This document shows, piece by piece, positions 8,139 to 20,431 of a DNA stretch of 36,278 nt. The position numbers were made by a program, and so were the translations under genes. The notes under the pieces were generated by a model that made no database searches, was not told where the DNA came from, and saw only the letters and a list, made by a program, of their open reading frames with translations. The stretch lies in IMG/VR virus record IMGVR_UViG_3300006162_000032; one strand, given 5' to 3'. The DNA comes from a virus. The first letter of the stretch is position 1; the number at the start of each line of letters is the position of its first letter.

Positions 8139-8141
8139 GCA

Positions 8142-8170
8142 ATGAGGGCCGCCCACCTTGGGCGGTAAGT
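8142..8170 (+). repeat. family-A stem-loop element (variant ATGAGGGCC)
   Basis: ATGAGGGCC-gcccaccttgggc-GGTAAGT. Confidence 0.7.
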
Positions 8171-8197
8171 CCAAATATGGACTAAAAGGAGAACAAT

Positions 8198-8530: not shown

Positions 8531-8531
8531 C

Positions 8532-8562
8532 ACAGAGGGTCGGACGATAAGTCCGGTAATGG
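8532..8562 (+). repeat. family-A stem-loop element (ACAGAGGG variant, 3' flank GGTAATGG fused to family-B leader)
   Basis: ACAGAGGGT-cggacgataagtccg-GTAATGG. Confidence 0.7.
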
Positions 8563-8626
8563 CAATGAGGGAAAACCTCAGAACTGAACGGTACCCGTTC
8601 AGTTTGCCATACCAGGAGAGGAACAT
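8556..8626 (+). promoter_or_regulatory. family-B structured 5' leader (three-way junction: ATGGCAA/TTGCCAT P1, GAGGG-AAAA-CCTC P2, variable P3) ending in ACCAGGAGAGGAACAT-ATG
   Basis: P1 and P3 complementarity; P3 = GAACTGAACGG/CCGTTCAGTT. Confidence 0.6.
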
Positions 8627-8821
8627 ATGAACATCGTAAGGAATTTGGCGCCACTTTGGCCGCTGCTGTTACTGTTGCTACTTTTTTCGTGGCTTGCGCG
8701 TCCCGCCGAGGCGTCCTCCCGCGGTAGCAGGGGACATCACCGTTCGGCGGTGGCAAGTTGGCCAAAAAGTACTCACGGTCACTCTCACTTCCCGCACAAA
8801 CCGGTAAAAACGAGAGGATAA
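8627..8821 (+). CDS. hypothetical protein with N-terminal signal-peptide-like Leu run (64 aa)
   Basis: start after family-B leader. Confidence 0.45.
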   Translation: MNIVRNLAPLWPLLLLLLLFSWLARPAEASSRGSRGHHRSAVASWPKSTHGHSHFPHKPVKTRG

Positions 8822-8822
8822 C

Positions 8823-9065
8823 ATGTCAATACGATTGATTATCAAAGGCGACAAAGAAACCGCCCTGGTCGAGGCCTCCCTCGCAGATATCCGGCAGTAT
8901 AACTTTGTAAAGGAAAATCTGCAATCGGACGGTGAGACCAAGTATACCGAGGCACTCGCATCAGACGCCGATCTGGAACGGGTTGCCATCTGGTTCACGA
9001 AACAAAAACACGAGGAGGTTCCCTATCCACCGGGGACACTTCTTTGGTACCAGTTTGTTCCTTAG
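8823..9065 (+). CDS. hypothetical protein (80 aa)
   Basis: GAGGATAAC-ATG, 1-nt gap after upstream stop. Confidence 0.5.
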   Translation: MSIRLIIKGDKETALVEASLADIRQYNFVKENLQSDGETKYTEALASDADLERVAIWFTKQKHEEVPYPPGTLLWYQFVP

Positions 9066-9069
9066 TGAT

Positions 9070-9101
9070 ACGAGGGCATCCCCGGAAACGGGGGTGTAAG
9101 T
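9070..9101 (+). repeat. family-A stem-loop element
   Basis: ACGAGGGC-atccccggaaacgggggtg-TAAGT. Confidence 0.75.
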
Positions 9102-9134
9102 CCGATGAATCGGGCTTATACAGGAGAAGAACAA

Positions 9135-10697
9135 ATGAATCACCAAGAAATGTTGAAGTCGTTCTTGGCAGTTGAAGCGATGAAGTCGTACAACGTCGTT
9201 AGTCCAATAATGTTATCCAATCCGATATCCGTGTTAAAACGTATGACGCGCGATAAAGGTTGGAGTAACCAGGCCATTGTTGAAATGGGCCGTCGGAAAA
9301 TGCTGGGAAAGTTTCTGGGAAGTTACGTCTTGCGTAATGTTTCCGGAGATGAAATATACCAAAAATTTCCGGTGTTGGATTATTTGGGTGAAGTTTCGTT
9401 GTTCTCGAAACCCGCCGACTGTGTTACTTACCGGGGAACGCCCGAGCAAAATCAAGTAATTGATCGCGCCTTGGCCGTCTCTCCGGTAAATACTTCCAAT
9501 AATTTTTTTGGGAGTGGTATCGCCGGACGTTTGTCCACGTTTTATAACGTGATCAATTTGGACATTGGGAACACACCCATTGCCATCATCGGTGGTGGGG
9601 CGGCGGGCCAAATTGTACGATATGGCCTGAGTCGCACCGGATTTAAAAATGTAACTCTTTATGAAAAGGGCAAACCATTTGGAATCTGGTCACGGGAAGA
9701 TATCAAAGGCGGGAGTCGAAACAATCCTCGTAGATTGGTCCTGGGCGAGTATGCCCTGGAACCGGCGCCCGGCGAAGGATCGGAGGTACGGGATTTTCTG
9801 CAAAATATCCAGAACGCCAATTCATTAAACGTTATCACCAACGACGTCACCACGGTTACTCCGAACAATCTTGCCCACGGGGTTTATGACCGTGGTCAAA
9901 GTTTTAAGGAGTACCCCATCGTCATCAACTGCCTGGGACTGGGAAAACCGAAAAACCTCTCGGATCGCCACCGTATGGTGACATCTGCGGAGGTCACCCA
10001 CGCCGGTAACCGTTGGCAAAAGCGCCTCACTTACCCGCAAATTAAGGGAAAGAAATTTCTCTTTATTGGCCTGGGAAACTCTACCGCCGAGATGCTCCGG
10101 CAACTTCACGATGCCCAGGATCGAGGAATTGATACCGATTATTCGGTATTGACCCACTATCCCAAGGACTCCGTATTTAATCCGGATGATTACATCATCC
10201 AAAAAAACACGAAGTACCGGGTATTTCGTGATCTTTCTGCCTCGAACCTGGTAGATTACGAGGGCGATCTTCCCCAGAACCGGGCCGATTACTACCGGGC
10301 ACTGCGGACGGGGCGCATCGTGTCAGATGTCACCGGGTGGGACCGGATCATAAAAGACTTTGTGATCCGGCGGGGTCGTTCCCAGACCGAAACCAAAGTG
10401 GATGAGTTTTATAACCTGACCGGTTATGAGAATCGCCCCGACGATCTGGTGAACTTCGGTTGCAGTTTCCGGCACAATGAAATGCAATACGACTACGACG
10501 GAGAAATTCAAAAGTCTCCCGGACTGGCCGACCCGGAACTCCGGTTGCACAAAGGTTACTTTGGGTTTGGCGCCCTTCTGGGAACCTCCCACAACCCCAA
10601 CGCGATCGTGATTCCGGGTATGTTGCACCGCCTGGGCGACCTGTTGTTCGGGGTCATCGTGCGGTCTATGGAGTACAAAGAAAAACAGAACGACTAA
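9135..10697 (+). CDS. FAD/NAD(P)-binding oxidoreductase with two dinucleotide-binding motifs (flavin monooxygenase-like)
   Basis: IAIIGGGAAGQIV (GxGxxG) and FLFIGLGNSTAEML (second Rossmann, PvdA/IucD-like GxGxSxAE); CAGGAGAAGAACAA-ATG. Confidence 0.7.
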   Translation: MNHQEMLKSFLAVEAMKSYNVVSPIMLSNPISVLKRMTRDKGWSNQAIVEMGRRKMLGKFLGSYVLRNVSGDEIYQKFPVLDYLGEVSLFSKPADCVTYRGTPEQNQVIDRALAVSPVNTSNNFFGSGIAGRLSTFYNVINLDIGNTPIAIIGGGAAGQIVRYGLSRTGFKNVTLYEKGKPFGIWSREDIKGGSRNNPRRLVLGEYALEPAPGEGSEVRDFLQNIQNANSLNVITNDVTTVTPNNLAHGVYDRGQSFKEYPIVINCLGLGKPKNLSDRHRMVTSAEVTHAGNRWQKRLTYPQIKGKKFLFIGLGNSTAEMLRQLHDAQDRGIDTDYSVLTHYPKDSVFNPDDYIIQKNTKYRVFRDLSASNLVDYEGDLPQNRADYYRALRTGRIVSDVTGWDRIIKDFVIRRGRSQTETKVDEFYNLTGYENRPDDLVNFGCSFRHNEMQYDYDGEIQKSPGLADPELRLHKGYFGFGALLGTSHNPNAIVIPGMLHRLGDLLFGVIVRSMEYKEKQND

Positions 10698-10727
10698 CGA
10701 GGGTGGGTCACTTCGGTGACCCGTAAG
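10697..10727 (+). repeat. family-A stem-loop element
   Basis: ACGAGGGT-gggtcacttcggtgaccc-GTAAG. Confidence 0.75.
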
Positions 10728-10761
10728 ACCAATCAAATCTTTAAATAGGAGAGGAATTAAC

Positions 10762-11172
10762 ATGAAATGGATTGAATTGCTGCGGGAGATTGCCAAAGAA
10801 ATCAACAAAAATTCGTCACCGACGGATGTACTAGACCGGGGTGGCGACAATCTCTACAAAATATCACAGGGGAAGGCCCTATGGTGGGTTCTTTCGGCGT
10901 TGCGCGGTCCGGATGAACAGAACTCGCAAAATGGCATCAGCGACCATGATGCCAAATGGGCGACGACCGAGGTAATCCGAGGCCGTCTTGGCCTATGGGA
11001 GAACGGTAATCAGGCCAGTTGTTTATCTAGTACCTCCGATACGGCAGATAAGCTGGAACTCCGCAAACGGATAGTCACCACGGGGGATAACCATTTTGGT
11101 TATCACGCCCGGATGGCCTTTCACGTTTTGGGCCTGAAATGGGATGAGGTCAATAAAATCGAACCCATTTAA
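10762..11172 (+). CDS. hypothetical protein (136 aa)
   Basis: ATAGGAGAGGAATTAAC-ATG. Confidence 0.55.
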   Translation: MKWIELLREIAKEINKNSSPTDVLDRGGDNLYKISQGKALWWVLSALRGPDEQNSQNGISDHDAKWATTEVIRGRLGLWENGNQASCLSSTSDTADKLELRKRIVTTGDNHFGYHARMAFHVLGLKWDEVNKIEPI

Positions 11173-11193
11173 CAAGATGTAGTGTCCCTGATA

Positions 11194-11223
11194 ACGAGGG
11201 CCACGGAGAAATCCGTGGTAAGT
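11194..11223 (+). repeat. family-A stem-loop element
   Basis: ACGAGGGCC-acggagaaatccgtgg-TAAGT. Confidence 0.8.
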
Positions 11224-11241
11224 ACAAGGAGAGAATTTCAA

Positions 11242-11478
11242 ATGAACCGACAAAATGTAGAAAAAACCAAGAAAAGATTGGAAGAACTAGGAGTCATCTC
11301 CCTAAATGAACTGCGCACACGCCTGGCTAAAAAGGGTGTGTCGCCGAATATACCGCTCACCACGGCCATGGTGAAACATGTTGAAAGTTACCCCCGGCCG
11401 GAGGAAGTCGTGGCCATGGGACTGGCGATGATTATGTACGGAATGATCAAGATGGAAAGGCGAGGGAACCCCCTCTGA
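11242..11478 (+). CDS. hypothetical protein (78 aa)
   Basis: CAAGGAGAGAATTTCAA-ATG; stop TGA lies in loop of hairpin AACCCCC-TCTGA-GGGGGTT. Confidence 0.5.
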   Translation: MNRQNVEKTKKRLEELGVISLNELRTRLAKKGVSPNIPLTTAMVKHVESYPRPEEVVAMGLAMIMYGMIKMERRGNPL

Positions 11479-11498
11479 GGGGGTTTAAGGAGGGAAAT

Positions 11499-11741
11499 AT
11501 GACAACACAAGTGGGAATGATCGAGGTAGATTCGACCAATATCCAAAGTATCGGATATGACGTGCTGCGGCGGATTCTGTACGTAAGATTCCTGACCGGC
11601 CGCATGTATCGTTACTTTGGCGTAGGTCCCCTGACCTTCGGCCGCTTTCAACGGGCACATTCCAAGGGTCGTTTTTTCTACCAGTTCGTTCGATATCGTT
11701 ACAAGTATGAATTGGTGGAAAACGGCCGGAGGGTGGCATGA
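11499..11741 (+). CDS. hypothetical protein (80 aa)
   Basis: TAAGGAGGGAAAT-ATG. Confidence 0.55.
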   Translation: MTTQVGMIEVDSTNIQSIGYDVLRRILYVRFLTGRMYRYFGVGPLTFGRFQRAHSKGRFFYQFVRYRYKYELVENGRRVA

Positions 11742-11914
11742 GATGGCGGGTCAAGTACGAAACTGTACTGGAGGCAGAAAACCGCACCCAGGCGGTTCTT
11801 TTGGCGGAGTCTTTAATTCCAGAGAAATATTCTAAAGGGATGAAATACACCGTCGAGTTTATTGATCTTGATGAAGAGATGACAGAGGAAGAATATTCAG
11901 AGGGCGCCGGGTGA
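11738..11914 (+). CDS. hypothetical acidic 58-aa protein
   Basis: ATGA overlap with upstream stop; stop TGA in loop of following hairpin; below ORF-track cutoff. Confidence 0.35.
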   Translation: MRWRVKYETVLEAENRTQAVLLAESLIPEKYSKGMKYTVEFIDLDEEMTEEEYSEGAG

Positions 11915-11925
11915 TCCCCGGCGTT
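11898..11925 (+). repeat. family-A-like stem-loop (CAGAGGGCG-ccgggTGAtccccgg-CG)
   Basis: variant lacking GGTAAGT; stop codon in loop. Confidence 0.5.
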
Positions 11926-11947
11926 ACGACCAAATAAAGGAGAAACA

Positions 11948-12214
11948 ATGACAGTAGATAATATTGATGTATACCCGATCGTCGGATGTGAAAAATATCC
12001 GGAGGTTCGGGAAGCAGGTTATTTGGTATGTGAACATGTCGGTAACCCCGGCGACGTGGAGTTTTTTGAGCCGGCCACCGAAACTTCCATGGGCGTAATC
12101 AGTTGCAAGAGTTGTCCTGAAGAAACCGACCCAAAAAGACAAATATATCACTTCTCGGTCAGTTGTGCGTCCTGCCTACGATCGGCGGGGTTTATTCCGA
12201 TTACTGTTCAATAA
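11948..12214 (+). CDS. Cys-rich (Zn-binding-like) hypothetical protein (88 aa)
   Basis: AAAGGAGAAACA-ATG; CxxxxxxxxxC, CKSC, CASC motifs. Confidence 0.5.
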   Translation: MTVDNIDVYPIVGCEKYPEVREAGYLVCEHVGNPGDVEFFEPATETSMGVISCKSCPEETDPKRQIYHFSVSCASCLRSAGFIPITVQ

Positions 12215-12242
12215 CAGAGGGCCACGGGAAACCGTGGTAACG
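12214..12242 (+). repeat. family-A stem-loop element (ACAGAGGG variant)
   Basis: ACAGAGGGCC-acgggaaaccgtgg-TAACG. Confidence 0.75.
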
Positions 12243-12301
12243 CACTCGTCCCTCCAGGCCGTGCGTTGGAAGCAAATTTGTTCGTGATAGGAGAGATTCA
12301 A

Positions 12302-12592
12302 ATGAAAAGTCAAAAGAAGCCCGTGCAGTCTGCAACGGGACGACAGTTTTACGCGCTGGTTGCAAAACCGAAGGTGGATATCACCAAATTAAAACCCCAT
12401 ACCCACGCCGGCGCCACCGTATTGGCCATTAAGAAACTCAAAAAGGCCACGAGTGGCGAGGTCATCGCCGAGGTTAAACGCCAGGGTAAATTGGCGACGA
12501 CGATGCCCGTCGAACAGGCAATTCACTACCAACTGTTCGATCTTGCCAAACGGCGGGGAGTCTTAAAAGTCATGCCAAAGCGGGCGGCATGA
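12302..12592 (+). CDS. small basic protein, paralog of 21962..22372 globular domain (putative nucleic-acid binding)
   Basis: HAGATVLAIKKLKKATSGEVIAEVKRQGKLAT vs HPGAVVHALRKLGEGTRNDVIVEVEKQGKIET. Confidence 0.5.
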   Translation: MKSQKKPVQSATGRQFYALVAKPKVDITKLKPHTHAGATVLAIKKLKKATSGEVIAEVKRQGKLATTMPVEQAIHYQLFDLAKRRGVLKVMPKRAA

Positions 12593-12611
12593 ATAATTCA
12601 TAATGTGGTAA

Positions 12612-12643
12612 ACGAGGGCCGGCCCAGTCATGGGCCGGTAAGT
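12612..12643 (+). repeat. family-A stem-loop element
   Basis: ACGAGGGCC-ggcccagtcatgggcc-GGTAAGT. Confidence 0.8.
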
Positions 12644-12658
12644 ACAAAGGAGAAAACA

Positions 12659-12841
12659 ATGCCAAGAGTAAAACCCGCCAGTCGGGATCGCATTATTTTA
12701 ATCCCCTGCCCTCGTTGCCGGGCCGGGTCTAATGAATTTTGCTTTCGCCAAACAGATTCTAAAAAAGAACCGATGTCAAATTTTGTTCATTCTGTTCGGG
12801 TTCGCGCCTATCATAAGGCGACCAGAGATGAAAAACAATGA
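12659..12841 (+). CDS. small Zn-ribbon-like protein (60 aa; CPRC...C)
   Basis: AAAGGAGAAAACA-ATG. Confidence 0.45.
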   Translation: MPRVKPASRDRIILIPCPRCRAGSNEFCFRQTDSKKEPMSNFVHSVRVRAYHKATRDEKQ

Positions 12842-12953
12842 CGAAGAGGAGCCTCAACATGGTTGGATCGCCACGATGATTGGGGCGGTAATCGTTGGGT
12901 TTTCGATTACCGGGGTCATCTTGATGGTTCAATGGTTTATAACGCGTCACTAA
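12828..12953 (+). CDS. hypothetical 41-aa membrane peptide
   Basis: overlaps 3' end of previous gene; TM segment IGAVIVGFSITGVILMV; stop abuts family-A element. Confidence 0.3.
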   Translation: MKNNDEEEPQHGWIATMIGAVIVGFSITGVILMVQWFITRH

Positions 12954-12983
12954 CGAGGGCCACGGGGGTAACCCGTGGTAAGT
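12953..12983 (+). repeat. family-A stem-loop element
   Basis: ACGAGGGCC-acgggggtaacccgtgg-TAAGT. Confidence 0.8.
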
Positions 12984-13002
12984 ACAAAGGAGAACGACAA
13001 AG

Positions 13003-13230
13003 ATGTGGAACCCATTTCGTAAGAAAAAAGCACCCGTTGTTGATCCAGTTTTTGATGCCATTGCCAACCGTCACGTTTGTCCAGACTGTAATAACGACAC
13101 ATTTTTTCAAGGACGACGGGGTGGGTTAAGTCAAAACATAAAATGTTCTAAGTGTGGTTCTGAATTTAACGTGGCGCCCTTCGAGGATGGCCAGTTTTTG
13201 GGCGAACCTTTTCTGGTAGAACGTATTTGA
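13003..13230 (+). CDS. Zn-ribbon protein (CPDC...CSKC; 75 aa)
   Basis: AAAGGAGAACGACAAAG-ATG. Confidence 0.55.
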   Translation: MWNPFRKKKAPVVDPVFDAIANRHVCPDCNNDTFFQGRRGGLSQNIKCSKCGSEFNVAPFEDGQFLGEPFLVERI

Positions 13231-13262
13231 ACGAGGGCCGTGGGATAACTTCCACGGTAAGT
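13231..13262 (+). repeat. family-A stem-loop element fused to family-B leader
   Basis: ACGAGGGCC-gtgggataacttccacg-GTAAGT. Confidence 0.8.
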
Positions 13263-13328
13263 GTGGCAGAGGGAAACCTCAGAGTGCGACGGCCTCCGCC
13301 GTCGACACTGCCATACCAGGAGAGGAAT
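13262..13328 (+). promoter_or_regulatory. family-B structured 5' leader (P1 TGGCAG/CTGCCA, a covariant of GGCAA/TTGCC)
   Basis: GAGGGAAACCTC P2; P3 GTGCGACGG/CCGTCGACAC; CCATACCAGGAGAGGAAT-ATG. Confidence 0.6.
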
Positions 13329-13547
13329 ATGCAAAACAAAATTATTGATGATTACATTCATCGATTACCTTGTAATCAACGGCGGTATGCGAGGGCATAT
13401 CGTACATGGTTACTGACCGGACAAAAGGGTTCGGCGCCCAATCCATTTGGCTTCCAGTTAAGTGGATTTGAAACTAGTCTGATCAAAAAGGTCATCGAAA
13501 ATGGGACCATTCAGGAGGCCCGGTATGCCAAGACCAAATCAGCCTGA
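13329..13547 (+). CDS. hypothetical protein (72 aa)
   Basis: start after family-B leader. Confidence 0.5.
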   Translation: MQNKIIDDYIHRLPCNQRRYARAYRTWLLTGQKGSAPNPFGFQLSGFETSLIKKVIENGTIQEARYAKTKSA

Positions 13548-13749
13548 GTTCGCCGTCAAAAAGAGCGAATTCGACGAAATACGACGGGTGATTCATCCGA
13601 CGATTACGTACGGTACCACCGAGGCGGGGCCGTTTAAGTACCTCATCTTTCCGGGTGAGACCGCGAGGCGTCGCGCGGTGATCGATGTTCAAACCGCCGG
13701 GTTCCGGGTATTTTATCAACGGTCTTGGGGAGGAATGGTAAAGGTATGA
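13525..13749 (+). CDS. hypothetical protein (74 aa)
   Basis: CAGGAGG at 13511-13517 then ATG 13525; overlaps upstream gene. Confidence 0.45.
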   Translation: MPRPNQPEFAVKKSEFDEIRRVIHPTITYGTTEAGPFKYLIFPGETARRRAVIDVQTAGFRVFYQRSWGGMVKV

Positions 13750-14003
13750 AAAAAGCAAAATCGACACCCAATCCGGAATGGACCGAGGAAAAGGTCAAAA
13801 AAGAATTACCCATGGTCAAACTCCAGGTTGGCCCACGGGTCATTCTTACTGCCGTTACTTCTGGTCGAATGTTAGATTATTGCGTAGTTTCCGTTTACTC
13901 CCATATGAATCTGGACGTGCCCCAGGTACGGGAAATGCGTCTGGAATTTTCCTGGGCGGCGGTTACTCGCAGTCTCAACGAAAATAAACCACTACAAATA
14001 TAA
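13746..14003 (+). CDS. hypothetical protein (85 aa)
   Basis: ATGA overlap. Confidence 0.5.
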   Translation: MKKAKSTPNPEWTEEKVKKELPMVKLQVGPRVILTAVTSGRMLDYCVVSVYSHMNLDVPQVREMRLEFSWAAVTRSLNENKPLQI

Positions 14004-14033
14004 CGAGGGCCGTGGGGAAAACCCACGGTAAGG
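14003..14033 (+). repeat. family-A stem-loop element (GGTAAGG variant)
   Basis: ACGAGGGCC-gtggggaaaacccac-GGTAAGG. Confidence 0.8.
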
Positions 14034-14066
14034 CCACAATAGAGTGAGCCTTGTAAGGAGAGGAAA
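14027..14066 (+). promoter_or_regulatory. family-C leader (GGTAAGGCCAC...GTGAGCCTT helix abutting AAGGAGAGGAAA-ATG)
   Basis: AAGGCCAC/GTGAGCCTT complementarity; related copies at 14318 and 14794. Confidence 0.45.
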
Positions 14067-14282
14067 ATGATCACGGATAGTATCAACAATCGCGATATGC
14101 GTCGTCAAGAAGCAATCAACAAGGCCATCGAGGCCGCCGATCGTATTATTCTGGAACACTCAGACGGATCGGTCGAAGAAACCAACTATCTAACCTCGGC
14201 CGTCGCCGTAAAGTGGGCCGAAAAGGTTCACCATGCAAACCAGCATGATTTGGCCCGGTACGATTTGAACCAGGCCGCCTAA
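14067..14282 (+). CDS. hypothetical protein (71 aa)
   Basis: GTAAGGAGAGGAAA-ATG. Confidence 0.5.
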   Translation: MITDSINNRDMRRQEAINKAIEAADRIILEHSDGSVEETNYLTSAVAVKWAEKVHHANQHDLARYDLNQAA

Positions 14283-14290
14283 GTTGTTTC

Positions 14291-14323
14291 CCCGAAGGCG
14301 GGTCACTCCGGTGACCCGTAAGG
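14291..14323 (+). repeat. family-A-like stem-loop (no ACGAGGG; stem gggtcactccggtgaccc + GTAAGG)
   Basis: same stem as copy at 10697. Confidence 0.55.
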
Positions 14324-14376
14324 CCACCATCCGGGGGCACGAAAACCGGAGTGAGCCTTATTAGGAGAGGAACAAT
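14318..14376 (+). promoter_or_regulatory. family-C leader with inserted hairpin TCCGGGGGCACGAAAACCGGA
   Basis: GTAAGGCCACC...GTGAGCCTT-ATTAGGAGAGGAACAAT-ATG. Confidence 0.45.
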
Positions 14377-14517
14377 ATGTCCCGAGACAAAGTGGTCAAA
14401 CGTCTGCAAGACGCGATCATGTGGTATGTTTCTCATGACGTGTATCGGTTGCTGATTGAACTTGCGTTTCTGGGTGGGGTGGCATCAGTTGCCATCGCCG
14501 GCGGCGCACGAGTATAA
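14377..14517 (+). CDS. hypothetical 46-aa protein with hydrophobic C-terminus
   Basis: TTAGGAGAGGAACAAT-ATG; below ORF-track cutoff. Confidence 0.35.
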   Translation: MSRDKVVKRLQDAIMWYVSHDVYRLLIELAFLGGVASVAIAGGARV

Positions 14518-14521
14518 ATCA

Positions 14522-14734
14522 ATGAACCGAAGACGACAAAGCCGTCTCCGGGCCAAGAATAGATTTTGGCGGGTTTACCACAGTATGTGGTTTAAACTGA
14601 TCGTGTTAGTGATTTTGATCGTGGCCGCTTTTCTTTTGCGACACGAGGCATTAACACTGACCGCGGTCGTCGTCAAGTCGATGGACATCGCCTGCGATTT
14701 ACTCGCCGACGGTGCTTTCAACGGTGGTGAATAG
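14522..14734 (+). CDS. hypothetical membrane protein (70 aa; Arg-rich N-terminus then TM)
   Basis: ATG 4 nt after upstream stop; TM LIVLVILIVAAFLL. Confidence 0.4.
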   Translation: MNRRRQSRLRAKNRFWRVYHSMWFKLIVLVILIVAAFLLRHEALTLTAVVVKSMDIACDLLADGAFNGGE

Positions 14735-14751
14735 AAACTCAAAACATATCT

Positions 14752-14766
14752 CTGCGATTATCGCAG
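14752..14766. promoter_or_regulatory. palindrome CTGCGATTATCGCAG (copy 1 of 2) between stop codon and family-A element
   Basis: second copy CTGCGATTCTCGCAG at 15592-15606 in identical context AAACATATCT-pal-TGATACGAGGGCC. Confidence 0.5.
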
Positions 14767-14770
14767 TGAT

Positions 14771-14800
14771 ACGAGGGCCGTGGGGAAACCCACGGTAAGG
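14771..14800 (+). repeat. family-A stem-loop element (GGTAAGG variant)
   Basis: ACGAGGGCC-gtggggaaacccac-GGTAAGG. Confidence 0.8.
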
Positions 14801-14853
14801 CACAAGCCGGGGGCACGAATCCGGCGGTGACCTTAAAAGTGGAGAGGAAAAAT
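14794..14853 (+). promoter_or_regulatory. family-C leader with hairpin GCCGGGGGCACGAATCCGGC
   Basis: GTAAGGCAC...GTGACCTT-AAAAGTGGAGAGGAAAAAT-ATG. Confidence 0.4.
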
Positions 14854-15069
14854 ATGGCACCCGAAAAACCAAAGGCCAAGACGGTAACCGTAGAGCTGCG
14901 CGTGGTTGATCCCAAGAAGGGAGCAGTCAAATACAGCCTTCCCAAGGATCAGTCCGGCGTACTCACCAACATCTACGTCAACCGTCTGGAGGCGATGAAA
15001 GAACTGGGTATCTCTGAACTCGGGGACCTCAAGGGTTTCAAGGTTACCCTGGAACCTATTACTGCGTGA
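14854..15069 (+). CDS. hypothetical protein (71 aa)
   Basis: GGAGAGGAAAAAT-ATG. Confidence 0.5.
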   Translation: MAPEKPKAKTVTVELRVVDPKKGAVKYSLPKDQSGVLTNIYVNRLEAMKELGISELGDLKGFKVTLEPITA

Positions 15070-15098
15070 CGAGGGCCGGCCCATCTGGGCCGGTAAGT
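15069..15098 (+). repeat. family-A stem-loop element
   Basis: TGA-CGAGGGCC-ggcccatctgggcc-GGTAAGT. Confidence 0.8.
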
Positions 15099-15111
15099 AC
15101 CGGAGGAAACA

Positions 15112-15234
15112 ATGAACAAACTTAAACAACTCGGAGAGTACGTAGTAGTACTGGCGGTCGTCGTAATCATTATCATCGGCAGTCGCCACCTAATCGGCGA
15201 CAATGTTAATCTGGTTTATAGCGTGGTTCGTTAA
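15112..15234 (+). CDS. hypothetical 40-aa membrane peptide
   Basis: CCGGAGGAAACA-ATG; TM VVVLAVVVIIIIG; below ORF-track cutoff. Confidence 0.35.
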   Translation: MNKLKQLGEYVVVLAVVVIIIIGSRHLIGDNVNLVYSVVR

Positions 15235-15261
15235 CGAGGGCCGTGGGAAACCACGGTAAGT
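15234..15261 (+). repeat. family-A stem-loop element
   Basis: TAA-CGAGGGCC-gtgggaaaccac-GGTAAGT. Confidence 0.8.
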
Positions 15262-15297
15262 CAATCTCCCCATTGACTTGAAAGGAGGACGCGCGAT

Positions 15298-15405
15298 ATG
15301 TGGCCATTTAACTTGCACCCCGTCTTCATGGGGTTTACCTGGTTTGATATCTCCGCAACCGCGTGGTTTTTTTTGTTGTGGTTGTTGTATCGGCAAGTTC
15401 ACTAA
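15298..15405 (+). CDS. hypothetical 35-aa hydrophobic peptide
   Basis: GAAAGGAGGACGCGCGAT-ATG; Trp/Phe/Leu-rich. Confidence 0.3.
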   Translation: MWPFNLHPVFMGFTWFDISATAWFFLLWLLYRQVH

Positions 15406-15416
15406 AGGAGAAAACA

Positions 15417-15575
15417 ATGAAAACACTGTGGAAGTCCGAAGAAGGGCAAGATATCGCAGAATACGCCGTGATGCTGGCGGTAATTCTGGTAATCGTCGTC
15501 GGTACGGTTCGCCTGATTGGAAGCAATTCCAATAACGTTTTTTCAAGTGCGGCGAGCGCCGTGGCGGCGCAGTAA
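15417..15575 (+). CDS. flp: Flp/Fap-family type IVb pilin-like protein (52 aa)
   Basis: MKTLWKSEEGQDIAEYAVMLAVILVIVVGTV matches Flp pilin signature (EEG-x-x-x-IEY-[AG]-hydrophobic stretch); CTAAAGGAGAAAACA-ATG. Confidence 0.55.
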   Translation: MKTLWKSEEGQDIAEYAVMLAVILVIVVGTVRLIGSNSNNVFSSAASAVAAQ

Positions 15576-15591
15576 AAATAAAAACATATCT

Positions 15592-15606
15592 CTGCGATTC
15601 TCGCAG
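15592..15606. promoter_or_regulatory. palindrome CTGCGATTCTCGCAG (copy 2 of 2)
   Basis: see 14752-14766. Confidence 0.5.
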
Positions 15607-15610
15607 TGAT

Positions 15611-15640
15611 ACGAGGGCCGCGGGGAAACCCGCGGTAAGT
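15611..15640 (+). repeat. family-A stem-loop element
   Basis: ACGAGGGCC-gcggggaaacccgcg-GTAAGT. Confidence 0.8.
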
Positions 15641-15706
15641 ACAGCCGGGAAAAAATCCCAAACAAGAAACTTAAACCGTCTCTTGTTGCTGTACCAGGAG
15701 AGGAAC
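15637..15706 (+). promoter_or_regulatory. family-B-like structured leader (variant, paralog of 5118-5183)
   Basis: TACAGC/GCTGTA P1, GGGAAAAAATCCC, AACAAGA...TCTCTTGTT, CCAGGAGAGGAAC-ATG. Confidence 0.55.
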
Positions 15707-15946
15707 ATGAAACTAATCTACGTTATCAACCACCATTCCAATGAAGATTACATGAACAATCTGGCAATCGTCGAAGTAGGACCGGACGACGCCTCTGAAA
15801 GTGGAATGACCATCGGAACAAAAATTGAACGGTACAGAAATTTGTTAAAGGTTAAGTACCCGTTTCATCATTCCATCGTGTTCATGGGTCACTTCCAGGG
15901 AGGTATTCATGTAATGCCATTCCAAGATTTAGAGATATTCATGTAA
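15707..15946 (+). CDS. hypothetical protein (79 aa); C-terminus altered by 32-bp tandem duplication
   Basis: start after conserved leader; ORF-track extension LLYQERN is translated leader. Confidence 0.5.
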   Translation: MKLIYVINHHSNEDYMNNLAIVEVGPDDASESGMTIGTKIERYRNLLKVKYPFHHSIVFMGHFQGGIHVMPFQDLEIFM

Positions 15947-15968
15947 TGCCATTCCAAGATTTAGAGAT
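15905..15968 (+). repeat. perfect 32-bp tandem duplication (ATTCATGTAATGCCATTCCAAGATTTAGAGAT x2)
   Basis: directly visible; without second copy the gene would end ...DLEI-TGA-CGAGGGCC as at other family-A junctions. Confidence 0.9.
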
Positions 15969-15971
15969 ATG

Positions 15972-15998
15972 ACGAGGGCCGTGGGAAACCACGGTAAG
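15972..15998 (+). repeat. family-A stem-loop element
   Basis: ACGAGGGCC-gtgggaaaccac-GGTAAGT. Confidence 0.8.
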
Positions 15999-16068
15999 TA
16001 TGGTTAATGAGGGGAAACCTCAGAACCAAGAGACTTCGTCTCTTGGTTTGCCATACCAGGAGAGGAAC
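15999..16068 (+). promoter_or_regulatory. family-B structured 5' leader
   Basis: ATGG..TTAATGAGGGGAAACCTCAG; P3 AACCAAGAGAC/GTCTCTTGGTT; TTGCCATACCAGGAGAGGAAC-ATG. Confidence 0.6.
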
Positions 16069-17172
16069 ATGAGTACAGCAACGTACCAAGTTACATCACC
16101 CGTGGACGATCCCTACTCGTCTTTGATTGATGAGTTTCTGTGGCGGGAGTTTCCCGTCGCCGCGGCTCCTCCAAAACAATCATTGCTCGAGATTATCACC
16201 GGTATTCTCTTGGGAACGAACCAGAATCGTTATGGTCCGATCCCGAAACCCGAGGCACTGGTGACAATTCGGGCGGTCATCCGGCAGAGTCTCGAACTGG
16301 GTAAGGCAATTCCGGTGCTGGTTCCCTGGGGCGGCCGAAAGGCCAAGACGGGGGCCATTCTGGATGTGGCCGAGGTCATGGCACTGAAACAACTCGCCTG
16401 CCTTTACCGGCAGGTTCGGGAAGTCTTCACACCATCTATCCAGTTTAATCTTCGTGTTGAAGATATCAACGCGGAGTATCTCTACCAAGAAGATGGCCCA
16501 GTCGGAGCAGAAATGGTGGAAGAGTACTCACAGGGTTTGTCGGCCTTGGTTCGGATTCTAAATCTTCATTTTGTGAATCCGGTCCGGGAAAAACATCTGA
16601 CTACCTATGAGGCCTACTTTGCCCTGGCCGACCAGATACAAGATGCCATGTACGAGTATCTGGTGGATAGTGACCAACCGGGTTATGACCGGAATAAATC
16701 CAAGTCTTGGGCAAAATTGCAGGACTTGGGTTGGTCTGGGGAAATTCCCACGGAGCAACGGGAGTATTACCGTCGACGGTATCGGGCCTGGGAACCGGGC
16801 ATTACGGAGTTCGCGGCCAATGTCAAGTTGGCGCGGTACTTCGCGGGCGCCCTGGCCCGGTACAAACTGCGGGCCTCGGGCGCAGATAAAAGTTGGACTG
16901 ATTATATTCAGATCAGCTTTACGCCGCCCGTACCCGGTGCCCCGGAGTCCTTTACCAATCGCATGTTGTACTATCGAACCATCGTCGAACGTTTGTCCAG
17001 AAATCACATGCCACCCTGGCGGGGTCGGGGTTACATTGCAATGATCGGACGGACGGCGGTTCCCAAACTTGCAAGTTTTCAAGAAAATCTTTCCTTGATT
17101 TCGCACCAAACTCGGTTGTCGAGAAACGGGGAAGACGTAGATGTTGATACAAGTTATTTGGTCAAACAATAA
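16069..17172 (+). CDS. hypothetical 367-aa protein (likely enzyme; no motif recognised)
   Basis: long ORF after family-B leader; ORF-track N-terminal 23 aa are translated leader. Confidence 0.65.
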   Translation: MSTATYQVTSPVDDPYSSLIDEFLWREFPVAAAPPKQSLLEIITGILLGTNQNRYGPIPKPEALVTIRAVIRQSLELGKAIPVLVPWGGRKAKTGAILDVAEVMALKQLACLYRQVREVFTPSIQFNLRVEDINAEYLYQEDGPVGAEMVEEYSQGLSALVRILNLHFVNPVREKHLTTYEAYFALADQIQDAMYEYLVDSDQPGYDRNKSKSWAKLQDLGWSGEIPTEQREYYRRRYRAWEPGITEFAANVKLARYFAGALARYKLRASGADKSWTDYIQISFTPPVPGAPESFTNRMLYYRTIVERLSRNHMPPWRGRGYIAMIGRTAVPKLASFQENLSLISHQTRLSRNGEDVDVDTSYLVKQ

Positions 17173-17201
17173 CAGAGGGACGCGGCGAACCTGCCGCGTT
17201 A
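17172..17201 (+). repeat. family-A-like stem-loop (ACAGAGGGAC-gcggcgaacctgccgcg-TTAATG)
   Basis: variant flanks. Confidence 0.55.
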
Positions 17202-17219
17202 ATGAACAGGAGGGAAAGC

Positions 17220-17411
17220 ATGCCAGAATTAGATCGGGTTTGGATGTTGGTAGATCGAGAAGGGGTAGTTTTGTATCATCGCCCCGGAACATCTGCCAGC
17301 GAGGCCTGGGAGTATGCCGTAAAGGACGTGAAGGATATCACGGGGTGGGATGCCAGTCTTCTCAAGAAAAAGGGCTTTCGAGCAAAAAAAAGTGATTATC
17401 AGTTTGCCTAA
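17220..17411 (+). CDS. hypothetical protein (63 aa)
   Basis: CAGGAGGGAAAGC-ATG. Confidence 0.5.
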   Translation: MPELDRVWMLVDREGVVLYHRPGTSASEAWEYAVKDVKDITGWDASLLKKKGFRAKKSDYQFA

Positions 17412-17431
17412 TAAGCCCATTCCTAGTAACT

Positions 17432-17460
17432 CAGAGGGCCGTGGGTAAATCCACGGTAAT
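17432..17460 (+). repeat. family-A stem-loop element (CAGAGGGCC ... GGTAATGG) fused to family-B leader
   Basis: CAGAGGGCC-gtgggtaaatccac-GGTAATGG. Confidence 0.75.
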
Positions 17461-17524
17461 GGCAATGAGGGGAAACCTCAAACATGCGGCTTCGCCGCAA
17501 TGTTTGCCATACCAGGAGAGGAAC
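17455..17524 (+). promoter_or_regulatory. family-B structured 5' leader
   Basis: TAATGGCAATGAGGGGAAACCTCA; P3 AACATGCGGC/GCCGCAATGTT; TTGCCATACCAGGAGAGGAAC-ATG. Confidence 0.6.
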
Positions 17525-17695
17525 ATGAAAGAGCCAATTAAAGTAGAACTCGGAGAAAAAGAATTGCGAGAATTATTAAATGGCCGCACAATCACCGTGC
17601 GGGATCGGCACCGCGAGATAGAAATCACCGCCACCGCGGCGGGGTTTCTGGCCGAGCGTGCGGTGATGGACGAAAATCCCGTTTTGAAAGTGTAA
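17525..17695 (+). CDS. hypothetical protein (56 aa)
   Basis: start after family-B leader. Confidence 0.5.
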   Translation: MKEPIKVELGEKELRELLNGRTITVRDRHREIEITATAAGFLAERAVMDENPVLKV

Positions 17696-17709
17696 AAGTA
17701 GTGGTAAAA

Positions 17710-17742
17710 ACGAGGGCCGGGGGATATATTTCCCCGGTAAGT
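17710..17742 (+). repeat. family-A stem-loop element
   Basis: ACGAGGGCC-gggggatatatttcccc-GGTAAGT. Confidence 0.8.
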
Positions 17743-17763
17743 AAATATCAAAGGAGAACGTAA

Positions 17764-19113
17764 GTGGAAGAAAAAGAATTATTAGATCGTGCAAAATCCG
17801 GCGATCAAGACGCGTTCTCCCAAATATATCGTGACCAGTTATCGCGGGTAAAAAAAACTTTGCGCAAATATTGGCAACTGAATGAAGACGCCGTGGAAGA
17901 ACTGGCCCAGGTGACCTTTACGAAGGCCTTTCTGGCCATCGGCGATTTTCGAGGTGAGGCCAAATTAAGTTCCTGGTTGCATCAAATTGCGCACCGGGAA
18001 TTTTTGATGTACCTACGAAGAAAGAACAATCTTTCAGAAGTATCCTTGGATAATCCCATCAATGAAGATGGAAACACCCTGGATTTGCCGGATACTCCGG
18101 ATAAAACCATAGATTCCTGGATCACACGTGAGCATTTTTTGCGCTTGTTACCGTATTTGAATAGGAGCCGGCGCCGCGTGTTGTTTCTTAGATTTCTGGA
18201 AGAAAAAACTTTGGAAGAAACCGCCGGAATTTTAAATTTGTCCGTCGGGGCCGTAAAGGCCTATCAATCACACGGTTTGAGTGATCTTCGAGTGTTGTGG
18301 GAGAGCAAATCAATGAGCAAATCAATGAGCAAGAAAAAACGAAGGTTGCGGCGCGAAAAACTGGTCGCCGCGGCCGCCCGGGAACACATCGGGAGTCCAC
18401 CACCGACGCAAATACGAAGTTCACGGAATGCGGGGGCGTCCAGATTCAATGAAACGGAACTGGGTAGTTATTACCATCTGAGCGGACGCGACCCTCGTGC
18501 CCCGAATCAAATATTTACGTCGCACGGACTTCTGGCAAAAACCCCCGTGAATCTCCGTCCCCCCCGGACGGTCACAGCACCGGGGCCGGTTCGGCAGTAT
18601 ACCCAGGAAGAGATTGTTCATCAAAACTATCTCTTTCAACTAAAACAACAAGGAGAGAAAACAATGGAACAAATACCAAGTGGATCACCACCGACCATCG
18701 AGTCTTTGATATCTGATGCCCATCGCAAGGTACAGTTTTATACCCGGCAGGCCGCGGAATCCGAGGCCGAGGCCCGTAAGTGGACCGCGGTGATTGAACA
18801 ACTGACAAGTGCCCACGATATTATCACGGGAAAGAAGTCGATTAATGCGACGGCCCATGATGAGGTCAATGGAAATGCCCCGCAGACTCGTTCACCACGA
18901 GGATATTGGGAACCGGTCTTAAAACAGATACTCGCCGATGGGCCTCTTCCTAAGAACGAATTAGTTCAGAAGATGATGACCGCGGGTACCACAAATGGTC
19001 AGGCCTATTCGATCATCCGTCGATGCCAAGATAAAGAATTAATCCTGGAATCGGATGGAAAACTGCACTGGATGGCGCCGGTCACCGAAGAACAACCGAG
19101 GGCCGCGGGGTAA
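17764..19113 (+). CDS. ECF-type sigma-70 family factor (regions 2 and 4) with about 260-aa C-terminal extension
   Basis: region 2: AVEELAQVTFTKAFLAIGDF...SSWLHQIAHREFLMYLRRK; region 4: RRVLFLRFLEEKTLEETAGILNLSVGAVKAYQSHGLSDLR; AAAGGAGAACGTAA-GTG start; in-frame internal AAGGAGAGAAAACA-ATG at 18664. Confidence 0.75.
   Translation: MEEKELLDRAKSGDQDAFSQIYRDQLSRVKKTLRKYWQLNEDAVEELAQVTFTKAFLAIGDFRGEAKLSSWLHQIAHREFLMYLRRKNNLSEVSLDNPINEDGNTLDLPDTPDKTIDSWITREHFLRLLPYLNRSRRRVLFLRFLEEKTLEETAGILNLSVGAVKAYQSHGLSDLRVLWESKSMSKSMSKKKRRLRREKLVAAAAREHIGSPPPTQIRSSRNAGASRFNETELGSYYHLSGRDPRAPNQIFTSHGLLAKTPVNLRPPRTVTAPGPVRQYTQEEIVHQNYLFQLKQQGEKTMEQIPSGSPPTIESLISDAHRKVQFYTRQAAESEAEARKWTAVIEQLTSAHDIITGKKSINATAHDEVNGNAPQTRSPRGYWEPVLKQILADGPLPKNELVQKMMTAGTTNGQAYSIIRRCQDKELILESDGKLHWMAPVTEEQPRAAG
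18303..18326 (+). repeat. 12-bp tandem repeat (GAGCAAATCAAT x2) inside sigma-factor extension (SKSMSKSM)
   Basis: directly visible. Confidence 0.8.
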
Positions 19114-19127
19114 TACCCGTGGTAAGG
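19097..19127 (+). repeat. family-A stem-loop element (stop TAA of sigma gene in loop)
   Basis: CGAGGGCC-gcggggTAAtacccgtg-GTAAGG. Confidence 0.7.
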
Positions 19128-19138
19128 AGGGAACAACA

Positions 19139-19357
19139 ATGAATGAAGGTTTGGCAAGTTTGGCGTTAATTTTACTGGGAGTATTGTACCTATGGTATGT
19201 ATTCTCTTTGGCCCGGCGACAGGAAAAGGCCTGGGAGATTATGCAACAGGCGCTTCTATCTCAGAACCGATGTGCGCCGCCGCCCGATATGGAAGTTCCG
19301 CCGGGGGTATTGCGTCCGGACGCACACCACGTACCACCGGCGCGGGGTATTCAGTAA
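19139..19357 (+). CDS. hypothetical membrane protein (72 aa)
   Basis: GGAGGGAACAACA-ATG; TM LASLALILLGVLYLWYVF. Confidence 0.45.
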   Translation: MNEGLASLALILLGVLYLWYVFSLARRQEKAWEIMQQALLSQNRCAPPPDMEVPPGVLRPDAHHVPPARGIQ

Positions 19358-19385
19358 CAGAGGGCCGGCCCACGGGCCGGTAATG
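19357..19385 (+). repeat. family-A stem-loop element (ACAGAGGG variant)
   Basis: ACAGAGGGCC-ggcccacgggcc-GGTAATGG. Confidence 0.75.
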
Positions 19386-19449
19386 GCAATGAGGGGAAAC
19401 CTCAACAAATAAGCCAACGGCTTATTTGTTGCCATATCAGGAGAGGAAA
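19379..19449 (+). promoter_or_regulatory. family-B structured 5' leader
   Basis: TAATGGCAATGAGGGGAAACCTCA; P3 AACAAATAAGCC/GGCTTATTTGTT; TTGCCATATCAGGAGAGGAAA-ATG. Confidence 0.6.
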
Positions 19450-19857
19450 ATGCGTTGTCCAAGTTGCAATAAGTTTGTTCCCTATGAAGACCCCCATGAA
19501 GTTGAGTTAGAAGGTGATTTGGAAGTGGACCTCATCGCGGCCGAGGTCCGGGCCGATGTTCGAGTAATATTGAAATGCGGCGAATGCGGCGAAGAATTGA
19601 AAGATGCAAATATCAGCGCAACTCAGGATATTCCTGGGTATGTACCCGAAGACCACGAGGGCGATGAACACGACCTCTCCGTCAATGGTAATGGTTCAGA
19701 TTTAGAACCGGCCACAAAAAGCGAGGGCAAGGGAAGAGGAACGAAAATGTTCTATGGTTTTTCTCTAGACTACAAAGTTTCGTGCAGTTGCGGAGCAACA
19801 TTCGAGGGAACGTTGTCGGATTTTGAACAAGCTAGTGCAATGAATGAACTCGCGTAA
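19450..19857 (+). CDS. Zn-ribbon-containing hypothetical protein (135 aa)
   Basis: MRCPSCNKF ... CGECGEE ... CSCG; start after family-B leader. Confidence 0.55.
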   Translation: MRCPSCNKFVPYEDPHEVELEGDLEVDLIAAEVRADVRVILKCGECGEELKDANISATQDIPGYVPEDHEGDEHDLSVNGNGSDLEPATKSEGKGRGTKMFYGFSLDYKVSCSCGATFEGTLSDFEQASAMNELA

Positions 19858-20429: not shown

Positions 20430-20431
20430 AC

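Follow-up and report, generated by a model that had tools for sequence, protein, structure and literature searches.

Introduction

A stable helix at most a few nucleotides from the 5′ end of a message, including a processed end, protects it against 5′-end-dependent decay, as at the 5′ hairpin of ompA and the RNase III sites of phage T7, and a hairpin left on the upstream fragment after intercistronic processing guards the 3′ end of that fragment. Twister and hammerhead ribozymes have been suggested to process polycistronic phage and bacterial mRNAs into pieces of differing stability (PMC6765202); beyond this suggestion of message processing, which is all that reviews offer, the biological role of bacterial and phage twisters is unknown. 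Among the lesions of twisters, pseudoknot defects are those tolerated least (PMC5408937; PMC11662667), and published searches contain no promising non-circular permutations (PMC10085705). Here we analyse a structured leader element, family B, which precedes seven genes of a putative early operon and follows a second repeat, family A, related to the twister core; both lie in a 36,278-nt stretch of viral DNA (IMG/VR record IMGVR_UViG_3300006162_000032; hereafter the window) that is a portion of an uncultured phage genome of about 70–100 kb.

Two further systems invite comparison. In the insulator RiboJ, a hairpin that caps the 5′ end once the ribozyme has cleaved is credited with higher levels of both mRNA and protein and with exposing the ribosome-binding site (RBS) (PMC6206723). 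In Cluster K mycobacteriophages, the start-associated sequence (SAS) is a conserved block that lies over the Shine–Dalgarno sequence (SD), a few bases before the start of some non-structural genes; about half of its copies are preceded by an inverted repeat whose spacer varies (extended SAS, ESAS), all are in one orientation, and a role in translation is suspected (PMC3203893).

Like SAS and ESAS, family B places an SD-overlapping block before a subset of starts, has an upstream inverted repeat and keeps a single orientation; the SAS sequence differs, however (GGGATAGGAGCCC), the ESAS arms are conserved in sequence rather than freely covarying, and neither a three-way junction (3WJ) nor a ribozyme-like partner is present there. 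With RiboJ it shares a ribozyme or ribozyme-like element and, behind it, a stable structure reaching almost to the RBS, but RiboJ is a synthetic fusion of the hammerhead of satellite tobacco ringspot virus (sTRSV) with a simple 23-nt hairpin, whereas the B cassette is natural, belongs to a polycistronic operon and forms a 3WJ, and its cleavage is putative. The ompA and T7 structures differ from B in that they lack a recurrent 3WJ, each being a lone hairpin or an RNase III duplex, and in that their processing is by protein and has been demonstrated. To the type-P5 twister (Rfam RF02684) the likeness is one of layout: a stop codon, xGCA or xx, GAGGG, a capped P1, U^AA (the caret marks the scissile site), P2′, a structured 3′ domain, the SD and AUG. 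The B cassette can be described as an intercistronic cassette of twister type in which a 3WJ leader stands in for the 3′ domain.

A three-way junction recurs in front of seven genes

The sequence block TACCAGGAGAGGAA occurs exactly at 5169, 8610, 13314, 15692, 16054 and 17510 and with one mismatch at 19435, always on the + strand and immediately ahead of a start codon; when up to two mismatches are allowed, 11 matches are found against 0.27 expected. A covariance model (CM) trained on the seven B copies, R1, recovers precisely these seven, at 61–88 bits, with the next match at 27.9 bits. A first-pass annotation of the window had described five main and two variant copies of a recurrent 3WJ leader, and this description holds: all seven fold to the same junction, both as minimum free energy (MFE) structure and as centroid, with energies of −20 to −34 kcal/mol and z-scores of −4.2 to −7.1, and none of 200 dinucleotide shuffles is as stable. 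The junction consists of B-P1 (6–7 bp), B-P2 (4–5 bp, capped by a purine loop GGAAA, GAAAA, GAAA or AAAAA) and B-P3 (9–12 bp, loop of 3–7 nt), joined by J(P1–P2) of 1–3 nt (A, UAA or C), J(P2–P3) of 0–2 nt and, in every copy, a J(P3–P1) of 0 nt. The copies, with the open reading frames (ORFs) that they lead, are as follows.

5119–5183, + strand: B variant copy 5118; 3WJ 5119–5171; P1 GUACAGU/GCUGUAC; P2 GGGA-GGAAA-UCCC; P3 AACAAGAGAU-UAC-AUCUCUUGUU; SD AGGAGAGG 5173–5180; ATG 5184, 87-aa ORF; 78.4 bits, z −5.46
8559–8626, + strand: B main copy 8556; 3WJ 8559–8610; P1 AUGGCA/UGCCAU; P2 UGAGG-GAAAA-CCUCA; P3 AACUGAACGG-UAC-CCGUUCAGUU; SD 8614–8621; ATG 8627, 64 aa; 71.9 bits, z −5.94
13261–13328, + strand: B main copy 13262, with shifted P1; 3WJ 13261–13316; P1 GUGUGGC/GCCAUAC; P2 GAGG-GAAA-CCUC; P3 of 11 bp with one bulge; SD 13318–13325; ATG 13329, 72 aa; 61.2 bits, z −7.08
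15639–15706, + strand: B variant copy 15637; 3WJ 15639–15694; P1 GUACAGC/GCUGUAC; P2 GGGA-AAAAA-UCCC; P3 AACAAGA..UCUUGUU; SD 15696–15703; ATG 15707, 79 aa; 66 bits, z −5.75
15998–16068, + strand: B main copy 15999; 3WJ 15998–16056; P1 GUAUGGU/GCCAUAC; P2 UGAGG-GGAAA-CCUCA; P3 of 12 bp; SD 16058–16065; ATG 16069, 367 aa; 75.9 bits, z −6.06
17459–17524, + strand: B main copy 17455; 3WJ 17459–17510; SD 17514–17521; ATG 17525, 56 aa; 88 bits, z −4.21
19383–19449, + strand: B main copy 19379; 3WJ 19383–19435; SD 19439–19446; ATG 19450, 135 aa, Zn-ribbon-like; 85.5 bits, z −5.67

Structural alignment and covariation, which the annotation had named as its own check, bear the fold out. Across the seven copies 96.1% of 155 cells hold standard pairs and 15 of the 25 pairs show changes in both partners (two in P1, two in P2, eleven in P3), a number reached by none of 500 shuffles; these figures lean towards structure because the alignment was made by hand, with N padding, and fitted to the per-copy folds, the MAFFT and CM alignments being structurally imperfect. 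Sliding the partner strand by 1–3 columns lowers pairing to 31–40%. Evidence from P3 that does not depend on the alignment points the same way, as at least five unrelated P3 sequences all form perfect or near-perfect hairpins between the conserved blocks, whose distance changes with P3 length; moreover, RNAalifold also predicts the junction on a plain MAFFT alignment. All of this covariation is among seven paralogues of one genome, and none could be obtained at the population level because the other fetched contigs that bear this phage match the window at 99.99–100% identity over their shared stretches. Among the copies, the sequences of P1 and P2 are kept and P3 has diverged completely.

Several details of the annotation stand in modified form. 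The P1 that it gave as common to the main copies is AUGGCA/UGCCAU in three of those five, but copies 15999 and 13262 pair GUAUGGU/GCCAUAC and GUGUGGC/GCCAUAC instead; the TGGCAG/CTGCCA change that it read as compensatory is present in the sequence but ambiguous, because its G belongs to P2 in the MFE structure. P3 is indeed always a perfect or near-perfect hairpin, but it is not different in every copy, since 5118, 15637 and 15999 share a CAAGAGA/UCUCUUG core. Its "invariant" 3′ block is nearly so, copy 19379 reading AUAUCAGG; the variants 5118 and 15637 keep the block exactly (5169 and 15692) beside their changed P1 helices, as stated, and the recurrent N-terminus LPYQERNM is, as suspected, the plain translation of TTGCCATACCAGGAGAGGAACATG.

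The 3WJ is the MFE structure of every copy, and the SD is never paired with the leader, even in folds that extend over the upstream hairpin and 30 nt of the coding region; where SD accessibility is low (copies 15637, 15999 and 19379), its partner is copy-specific coding sequence. No copy carries a promoter-like site of the sigma-70 type (−35/−10 at 16–18 bp spacing), and intrinsic terminators are likewise absent from the + strand of every copy, P3 being followed by UUGCCAUACC. B is a recurrent structured RNA 5′ leader, neither a promoter nor a chance repeat.

The seven B-led genes gave nothing above threshold in Pfam or PHROGs. The 56-aa product of 17525–17695 has a weak, sub-threshold match (E 0.005) to FlbT, a flagellin-mRNA-binding regulator, and no match in the PDB.

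Family B continues a twister-type core

All seven B copies stand immediately 3′ of a family A element, which directly follows the stop codon of the upstream gene and has the form xx-GAGGG-[6–9 bp G+C-rich hairpin]-UAA-yy. GAGGG and UAA are invariant in the 33 aligned copies, the seven pre-B copies included; the hairpin, P1, is 97.8% paired, with covariation at each of its seven pairs, and the flanking dinucleotides form a 2-bp helix, P2, that is 90.9% paired (AC/GU 21, CA/UG 5, CC/GG 1). The model of family A, R2, gives 35 matches, all on the + strand between 4420 and 21031; the flanking sequence, 10 kb on the upstream side and 12 kb on the downstream side, contains none. The family, and the one complete twister candidate of the same operon, are located as follows.

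4420–21031, + strand: family A span; 33 aligned copies, the first at 4420–4453 and the last at 20998–21031, in nearly every intergenic spacer of the early operon
5089–5122, + strand: A before B 5118; AC-GAGGG-hairpin-UAA-GU; 43.2 bits; matches the twister-like L1/P1/P2 core
8531–8563, + strand: A before B 8556; CA-GAGGG-hairpin-UAA-UG; 31.1 bits
13229–13264, + strand: A before B 13262; 38 bits
15609–15642, + strand: A before B 15637; 47.6 bits; Twister-P5 23.9 bits
15970–16001, + strand: A before B 15999; 38.2 bits
17430–17463, + strand: A before B 17455; 38.4 bits; Twister-P5 23 bits
19356–19387, + strand: A before B 19379; 39.4 bits
11896–11930 and 14290–14325, + strand: weaker family A matches to R2
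3987–4117, + strand: complete twister candidate with capped P1 and type-P5 layout; RF02684 30 bits, E 8e-4 in 2 kb

The annotation had proposed a search for a known motif; no Rfam family reaches its gathering threshold in the window, and at the E-value threshold only sub-threshold matches to Twister-P5 appear. In a permissive scan these fall repeatedly on A elements, at 18–30 bits, all under the gathering threshold of 37.6. The RF02684 consensus reads cGCA-GAGgG-[P1 hairpin]-UAA-UGCg-GC-AAgac-[P4/L4], and family A matches its P2–L1–P1 core exactly, catalytic loop included: the U^AA strand lies opposite GAGGG and beside P1 in the A+B cassettes as well, the two strands of L1 (GAGGG/UAA) are identical to those of the twister, and P1 and P2 covary, although the P2 candidate has only 2–3 bp against 3–4 bp in type-P5 twisters. 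The main B copies keep UAAUG-GCAA where the twister consensus has UAAUGCgGCAA, and have a hairpin at the place of P4. In the Rfam alignment of 17430–17463 together with the start of B, UAAUG--GCAAU-GAGG..CUC is taken as P2′–L2–P4 of Twister-P5; B occupies the place of P2′, L2, P3 and P4 in complete twisters, with B-P2 aligned to P4. A repetition that the annotation overlooked is that the GAGGG of B-P2 recurs as the L1 strand about 25 nt upstream.

B-P1 begins 1–2 nt past the A that follows the scissile U and ends 1–3 nt before AGGAGAGG. Because its 5′ strand consists of the twister positions A(+2), P2′ and L2, B-P1 and A-P2 are mutually exclusive; in the MFE structure of the B cassettes B-P1 occupies the 3′ strand of A-P2, so that, unlike in a twister, the bases of P2′ and L2 are sequestered. 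The hairpin at the P4 position, B-P2, carries a purine loop and not the L4 sequence UCCCAAGC; without it the canonical pseudoknots T1 (L1 GGG with L4 CCC) and T2 (L2 GC with L4 GC) are impossible in A+B, and non-canonical substitutes (CCUC or UCCC for T1, the GC of UGCCAU for T2) are possible on paper only. B therefore falls outside the twister class on L4 and on both pseudoknots. P4/L4 is absent from all A elements outside 3987–4117, hairpins bearing UCCCAAG occur only at 3516–3531 and 4102–4117, and the dinucleotide at the L2 position is not conserved in family A (AC 11, CC 6, GC 4, others 12).

The candidate at 3987–4117, just upstream of the first early gene, contains UGCA, GAGGG, P1, U^AA (UAA at 4036–4038), UGC, GC, P3 (CGUGG..CCACG) and P4–L4 (CCAG-UCCCAAGC-CUGG), that is, every consensus base, the T1 and T2 complementarity and all elements of the twister core; it scores below the gathering threshold because its P1 loop has 23 nt and its P3 insert 58 nt. 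The insert (4037–4094) is itself B-like, with a partial R1 match of 17.8 bits and a weak B-type P1, AUGcGC/GCCAU, that would compete with P2, T2 and P3 of this ribozyme. The degenerate B copy that the annotation placed at 4060–4149 corresponds to this match, but it sits within the P3 insert of a complete twister.

Small hairpins, two large domains and a "family C" are further short modules of the operon that start at the UAA of A and close just ahead of the SD, and B is therefore one of several closed A-to-SD spacers. Family C leaders lie between an A element and the SD at 14027–14066, 14290–14376 and 14794–14853 and have a P1 of UAAGGC/GCCUUA, which in two copies encloses CCGG-GGGCACGAA(A)A-CCGG; the copy at 14027–14066 is shorter and has no inner hairpin. 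A large leader domain at 6111–6237, closed by GGUAAGUGACGG/CCGUCACUUACC, holds GGUUCGAUUCC, which resembles a tRNA T arm, and ARAGORN calls no tRNA in it. The leader hairpins at 12236–12301 and 15255–15290 have loops, CCCUCC and CUCCCC, that complement the GAGGG of the preceding A and are possible T1-like partners of it. Two A copies are preceded by a repeat of about 50 nt (14740–14802 and 15580–15642) with an extra hairpin, CUGCGAUUxUCGCAG, and their A hairpins differ by a compensatory change from U-A to C-G.

Other twister-like sequences were seen as well. At 3494–3532 is a partial twister with P2 CGU/ACG, L2 AC and P4/L4 CAGG-UCCCAAGU-CCUG, in which L2 and L4 are complementary (AC:GU) and the CCC of L4 has no partner in cis because a 10-nt loop replaces L1 and P1. 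Downstream of the A copy at 5767, the segment 5797–5850 (GGUCUC-ACCCAAGACG...-GAGACU) may represent an enlarged P4/L4, in which case this would be a second complete twister; no match to it is given by Rfam. The P1 loop of 3987–4117 carries GGGACUCUCCUCC, a pyrimidine-rich, anti-SD-like 13-mer found also in a hairpin loop at 3941–3953.

Relatives and twister arrays in other phages

In an IMG/VR scan with the canonical twister pattern, 67 phage loci were found, and six of these contigs hold arrays of above-threshold type-P5 twisters between small genes (L124 8, L129 8, L100 6, L130 5, L093 5, L131 5). Their layout, stop codon, twister, 5–20 nt, SD and AUG, is that of family A here, and no description of phage twister arrays of this kind was found in the literature searched.

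Copies of B were found neither in these phages nor elsewhere: exact and gapped B patterns have no match in IMG/VR, and there is none at the loci of the JGI metagenome scan or in relatives of the phage. The family A pattern gave only single, chance-level matches (42 loci in IMG/VR and 17 in the JGI metagenomes, with B at none of the 17). A megablast of 8000–20000 against phage records returned no match and hence no close relative among them; neither the 367-aa protein nor the sigma factor has a relative in IMG/VR, and a set of 5.8 billion proteins contains no homologue of the sigma factor.

Relatives traced through the SNF2 helicase and the 207-aa protein (L045/L073, L074 and L047) have no B, and their A-like elements are diverged or single: L074 has one strong A-like copy, directly on an SD and with the same hairpin as the A at 20430 of the window, and L073 has a diverged form, UGAAGG-hairpin-UAAR. 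A long non-coding region of L073 contains two tRNA genes and a weak match to YrlA (Y RNA-like), at 10813–10885, 7689–7760 and 11126–11252.

Possible function of the closed leader

We propose, as an explanation that is quite possible though short of probable, that B forms a closed domain in the 5′ leader and thereby stabilises the downstream cistron or insulates it. On this view a ribozyme cassette appears to have been remodelled so as to shape the beginning of each message. Each cassette runs from the stop codon through xx-GAGGG-P1 hairpin-U^AA (A), B and 1–3 nt to a strong SD, AGGAGAGGAA, and AUG, with B acting in cis as the closed 3WJ leader of seven early cistrons. It would derive from an elaborated twister P3 domain whose downstream P4/L4 was lost and whose position became fixed next to the SD; this descent appears the most likely because a B-like copy remains in the P3 insert of the complete twister of the same operon. 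Since P1 pairs bases after the scissile site with bases before the SD, the whole spacer folds into one compact unit, which would give the downstream message a flush, stable 5′ structure and shield the SD from neighbouring sequence so that it stays single-stranded; should cleavage take place at U^A or close to it, the same structure may guard the RNA against 5′-end-dependent decay. B would then do in nature what RiboJ, an insulator engineered from a ribozyme and a hairpin, does by design, and the other spacer modules that close before the SD fit a general closed-spacer design. The proposal also agrees with the suggested processing of polycistronic RNAs by phage and bacterial twisters (PMC6765202).

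Several observations weigh against this proposal. By twister rules the A+B cassettes should not cleave themselves, as L4 and both canonical pseudoknots are absent, and cleavage of this kind is unlikely; such defects are poorly tolerated, so that a processed 5′ end at U^A is no more than putative. Predicted SD accessibility ranges from 0.16 to 0.78 when 30 nt of coding sequence are included, the seven genes have no common property detectable with Pfam or PHROGs, and only seven of about 35 cassettes contain B. A purely structural role also leaves unexplained why P1 and P2 are conserved in sequence while P3 drifts, and the comparative evidence is confined to the paralogues of a single genome.

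Alternative explanations

The annotation itself took the leader for a translational riboregulator, a thermosensor or riboswitch platform, in which the CCUC of P2 would alternate between GAGGG and the SD GGAGAGG. CCUC does complement the GAGG within the SD of the five main copies, but the forced alternative fold costs +5.6 to +9.9 kcal/mol there and has no possible register in the two variants, whose P2 is GGGA/UCCC; SD accessibility drifts smoothly between 20 and 55 °C, with no switch, the junctions of 0–3 nt are too short and too poorly conserved to form a ligand pocket, and no Rfam riboswitch or thermometer matches, which leaves such a switch highly improbable. B could also be an operator: a phage or host RNA-binding protein would read the face formed by P1 and P2, for instance at the purine-rich P2 loop, along with the SD, and so co-regulate the seven genes. 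Conserved P1 and P2 beside a fully diverged P3 are typical of a protein-contacted face with a structural spacer, and GGA motifs occur both in P2 loops (GGAAA, GAAAA or GAAA) and in the SD, as in the two-site geometry of CsrA. The FlbT-like match of a B-led product would suit such an operator, but it lies under the curated cut-off; no RNA-binding protein was found, the variants differ in the sequence of P1 and P2, one of them has an AAAAA loop without GGA, and there are no homologues on which co-occurrence could be checked, so that we consider the operator improbable, though worth keeping in view. Cutting by a host enzyme of the RNase III type, which would separate the cistrons in place of a lost ribozyme activity, has a precedent in the sites between the early genes of T7, and P1 and P3, with no nucleotide between them in any copy, can stack coaxially into a helix of 16–19 bp. 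Classical substrates are longer (about 20–22 bp), however, the P2 branch and its conservation would go unexplained, and a cut within B would strip the structure beside the SD; we judge this very unlikely. To a DNA-level element without RNA function, either a promoter for the phage sigma factor (17764–19113) or a shuffling boundary repeat like the PeSL cassettes of T4-type phages, we give next to no credence: the operon does encode a sigma-70-family factor, and modules have been gained or lost among relatives (L074 shares the A hairpin of 20430 and not the downstream module), yet eleven covarying P3 pairs and the compensatory changes in P1 and P2 are not expected of a promoter or recombination site, the spacing of the conserved blocks varies with P3 length, nothing promoter-like matches on B, and all copies are on the coding strand and fixed to the SD.

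B might instead be the working, regulatory part of a rearranged twister, with the 3WJ as its OFF state, in which B-P1 locks P2′ and L2 and B-P2 locks a C-rich strand (CCUC or UCCC) complementary to the L1 GAGGG, and with an alternative fold that cuts at U^A through T1-like (GAGG:CCUC or GGG:CCC) and T2-like (GC:GC) contacts. In each of the seven copies the 3′ strand of B-P2 complements 3–4 nt of the L1 GAGGG, and in the variants this strand, as UCCCAA, equals the L4 consensus UCCCAAGC over its first six bases. The UAAUG-GCAA of the main copies departs little from the twister consensus and retains the GC of L2, a further GC is present in UGCCAU, the same competing helix AUGcGC/GCCAU lies inside the complete twister, and the invariance of GAGGG and UAA over 33 copies is hard to explain without twister-like chemistry. 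Against this, no P4 closes an L4-like loop, the L2 dinucleotide varies across family A, P2 has just 2–3 bp, the 3WJ dominates the ensemble at −20 to −34 kcal/mol, published searches hold no promising non-circular permutations (PMC10085705) and pseudoknot defects are poorly tolerated (PMC5408937; PMC11662667); we think it rather unlikely. Unlikely too is the broader claim that the roughly 35 GAGGG-hairpin-UAA elements, A+B especially, are a new rearranged twister rather than relics, with the 3WJ as the inactive conformer of a natural ribozyme switch; the roles of L4 would then be redistributed (CCUC or UCCC for T1, the GC of UGCCAU for T2, with an insertion at P3) or supplied by a partner, and the switch would decide whether two neighbouring early cistrons are separated.

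Other candidates were rejected. Hammerhead and twister-sister folds have too few unpaired junction bases here and no Rfam matches. Completion of A elements in trans by the L4 hairpin at 3516–3531 is contradicted by the variable L2 dinucleotide, and the complex would be held by 3–5 bp only; a trans RNA complementary to UUGCCAUACCA does not occur in the window. A boxB/nut-like antitermination site does not agree with seven copies at ribosome-binding sites and a non-conserved loop, and the GAGGG/UAA loop does not fit the k-turn consensus.

The operon thus offers a natural series, one complete twister, about 35 cassettes with only the invariant L1/P1 core and seven in which a 3WJ is set against a strong RBS, that could make the question of what twisters do testable. 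Should the truncated cassettes cut, or be cut with the help of a partner, they would show a ribozyme core re-used and rewired; should they not, the invariance of the catalytic-loop bases in some 35 A elements that have no pseudoknot partner needs a new explanation. Either way B is a compact natural "spacer-closing" leader that could be used as an insulator part, and it offers a direct test of what intercistronic ribozyme cassettes do for phage gene expression.

Transcription unit and other features of the window

Nearly all called genes of the window are on the + strand; they encode, among others, a sigma-70-family factor (17764–19113, inside the early operon), a C5 methyltransferase, an Rnl1-type RNA ligase, an SNF2 helicase and an Acb2/Tad1-like protein. 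Consensus matches at both ends delimit a putative early unit (2826–21150) with a 1.3-kb non-coding leader and about 50 small ORFs, with which the span of family A coincides.

2826–2854, + strand: best sigma70-like promoter match of the window, TTTTCA-17-TATAAT preceded by an A/T tract; consensus match only; putative start of the early transcript bearing all A and B elements
21117–21150, + strand: intrinsic-terminator-like hairpin with T run; consensus match only; closely preceded by the last A copy; putative end of the early transcript

Between the putative promoter and the twister candidate lies about 1.1 kb of strongly structured non-coding DNA (2860–3986), in which no tRNA and no Rfam family above threshold was found; tRNA genes are absent from the window as a whole. 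The 483-aa and 389-aa ORFs of 27422–29976 (MVP shoulder domain) correspond to one continuous gene of 851 aa in contig ERZ27247953 k141_4512440, from which the window differs here by a 1-nt indel. Finally, 86 nt at 25391–25476 (− strand) are 95% identical to L048 7163–7247, an inverted repeat about 28 kb apart, the L048 copy being upstream of the window.

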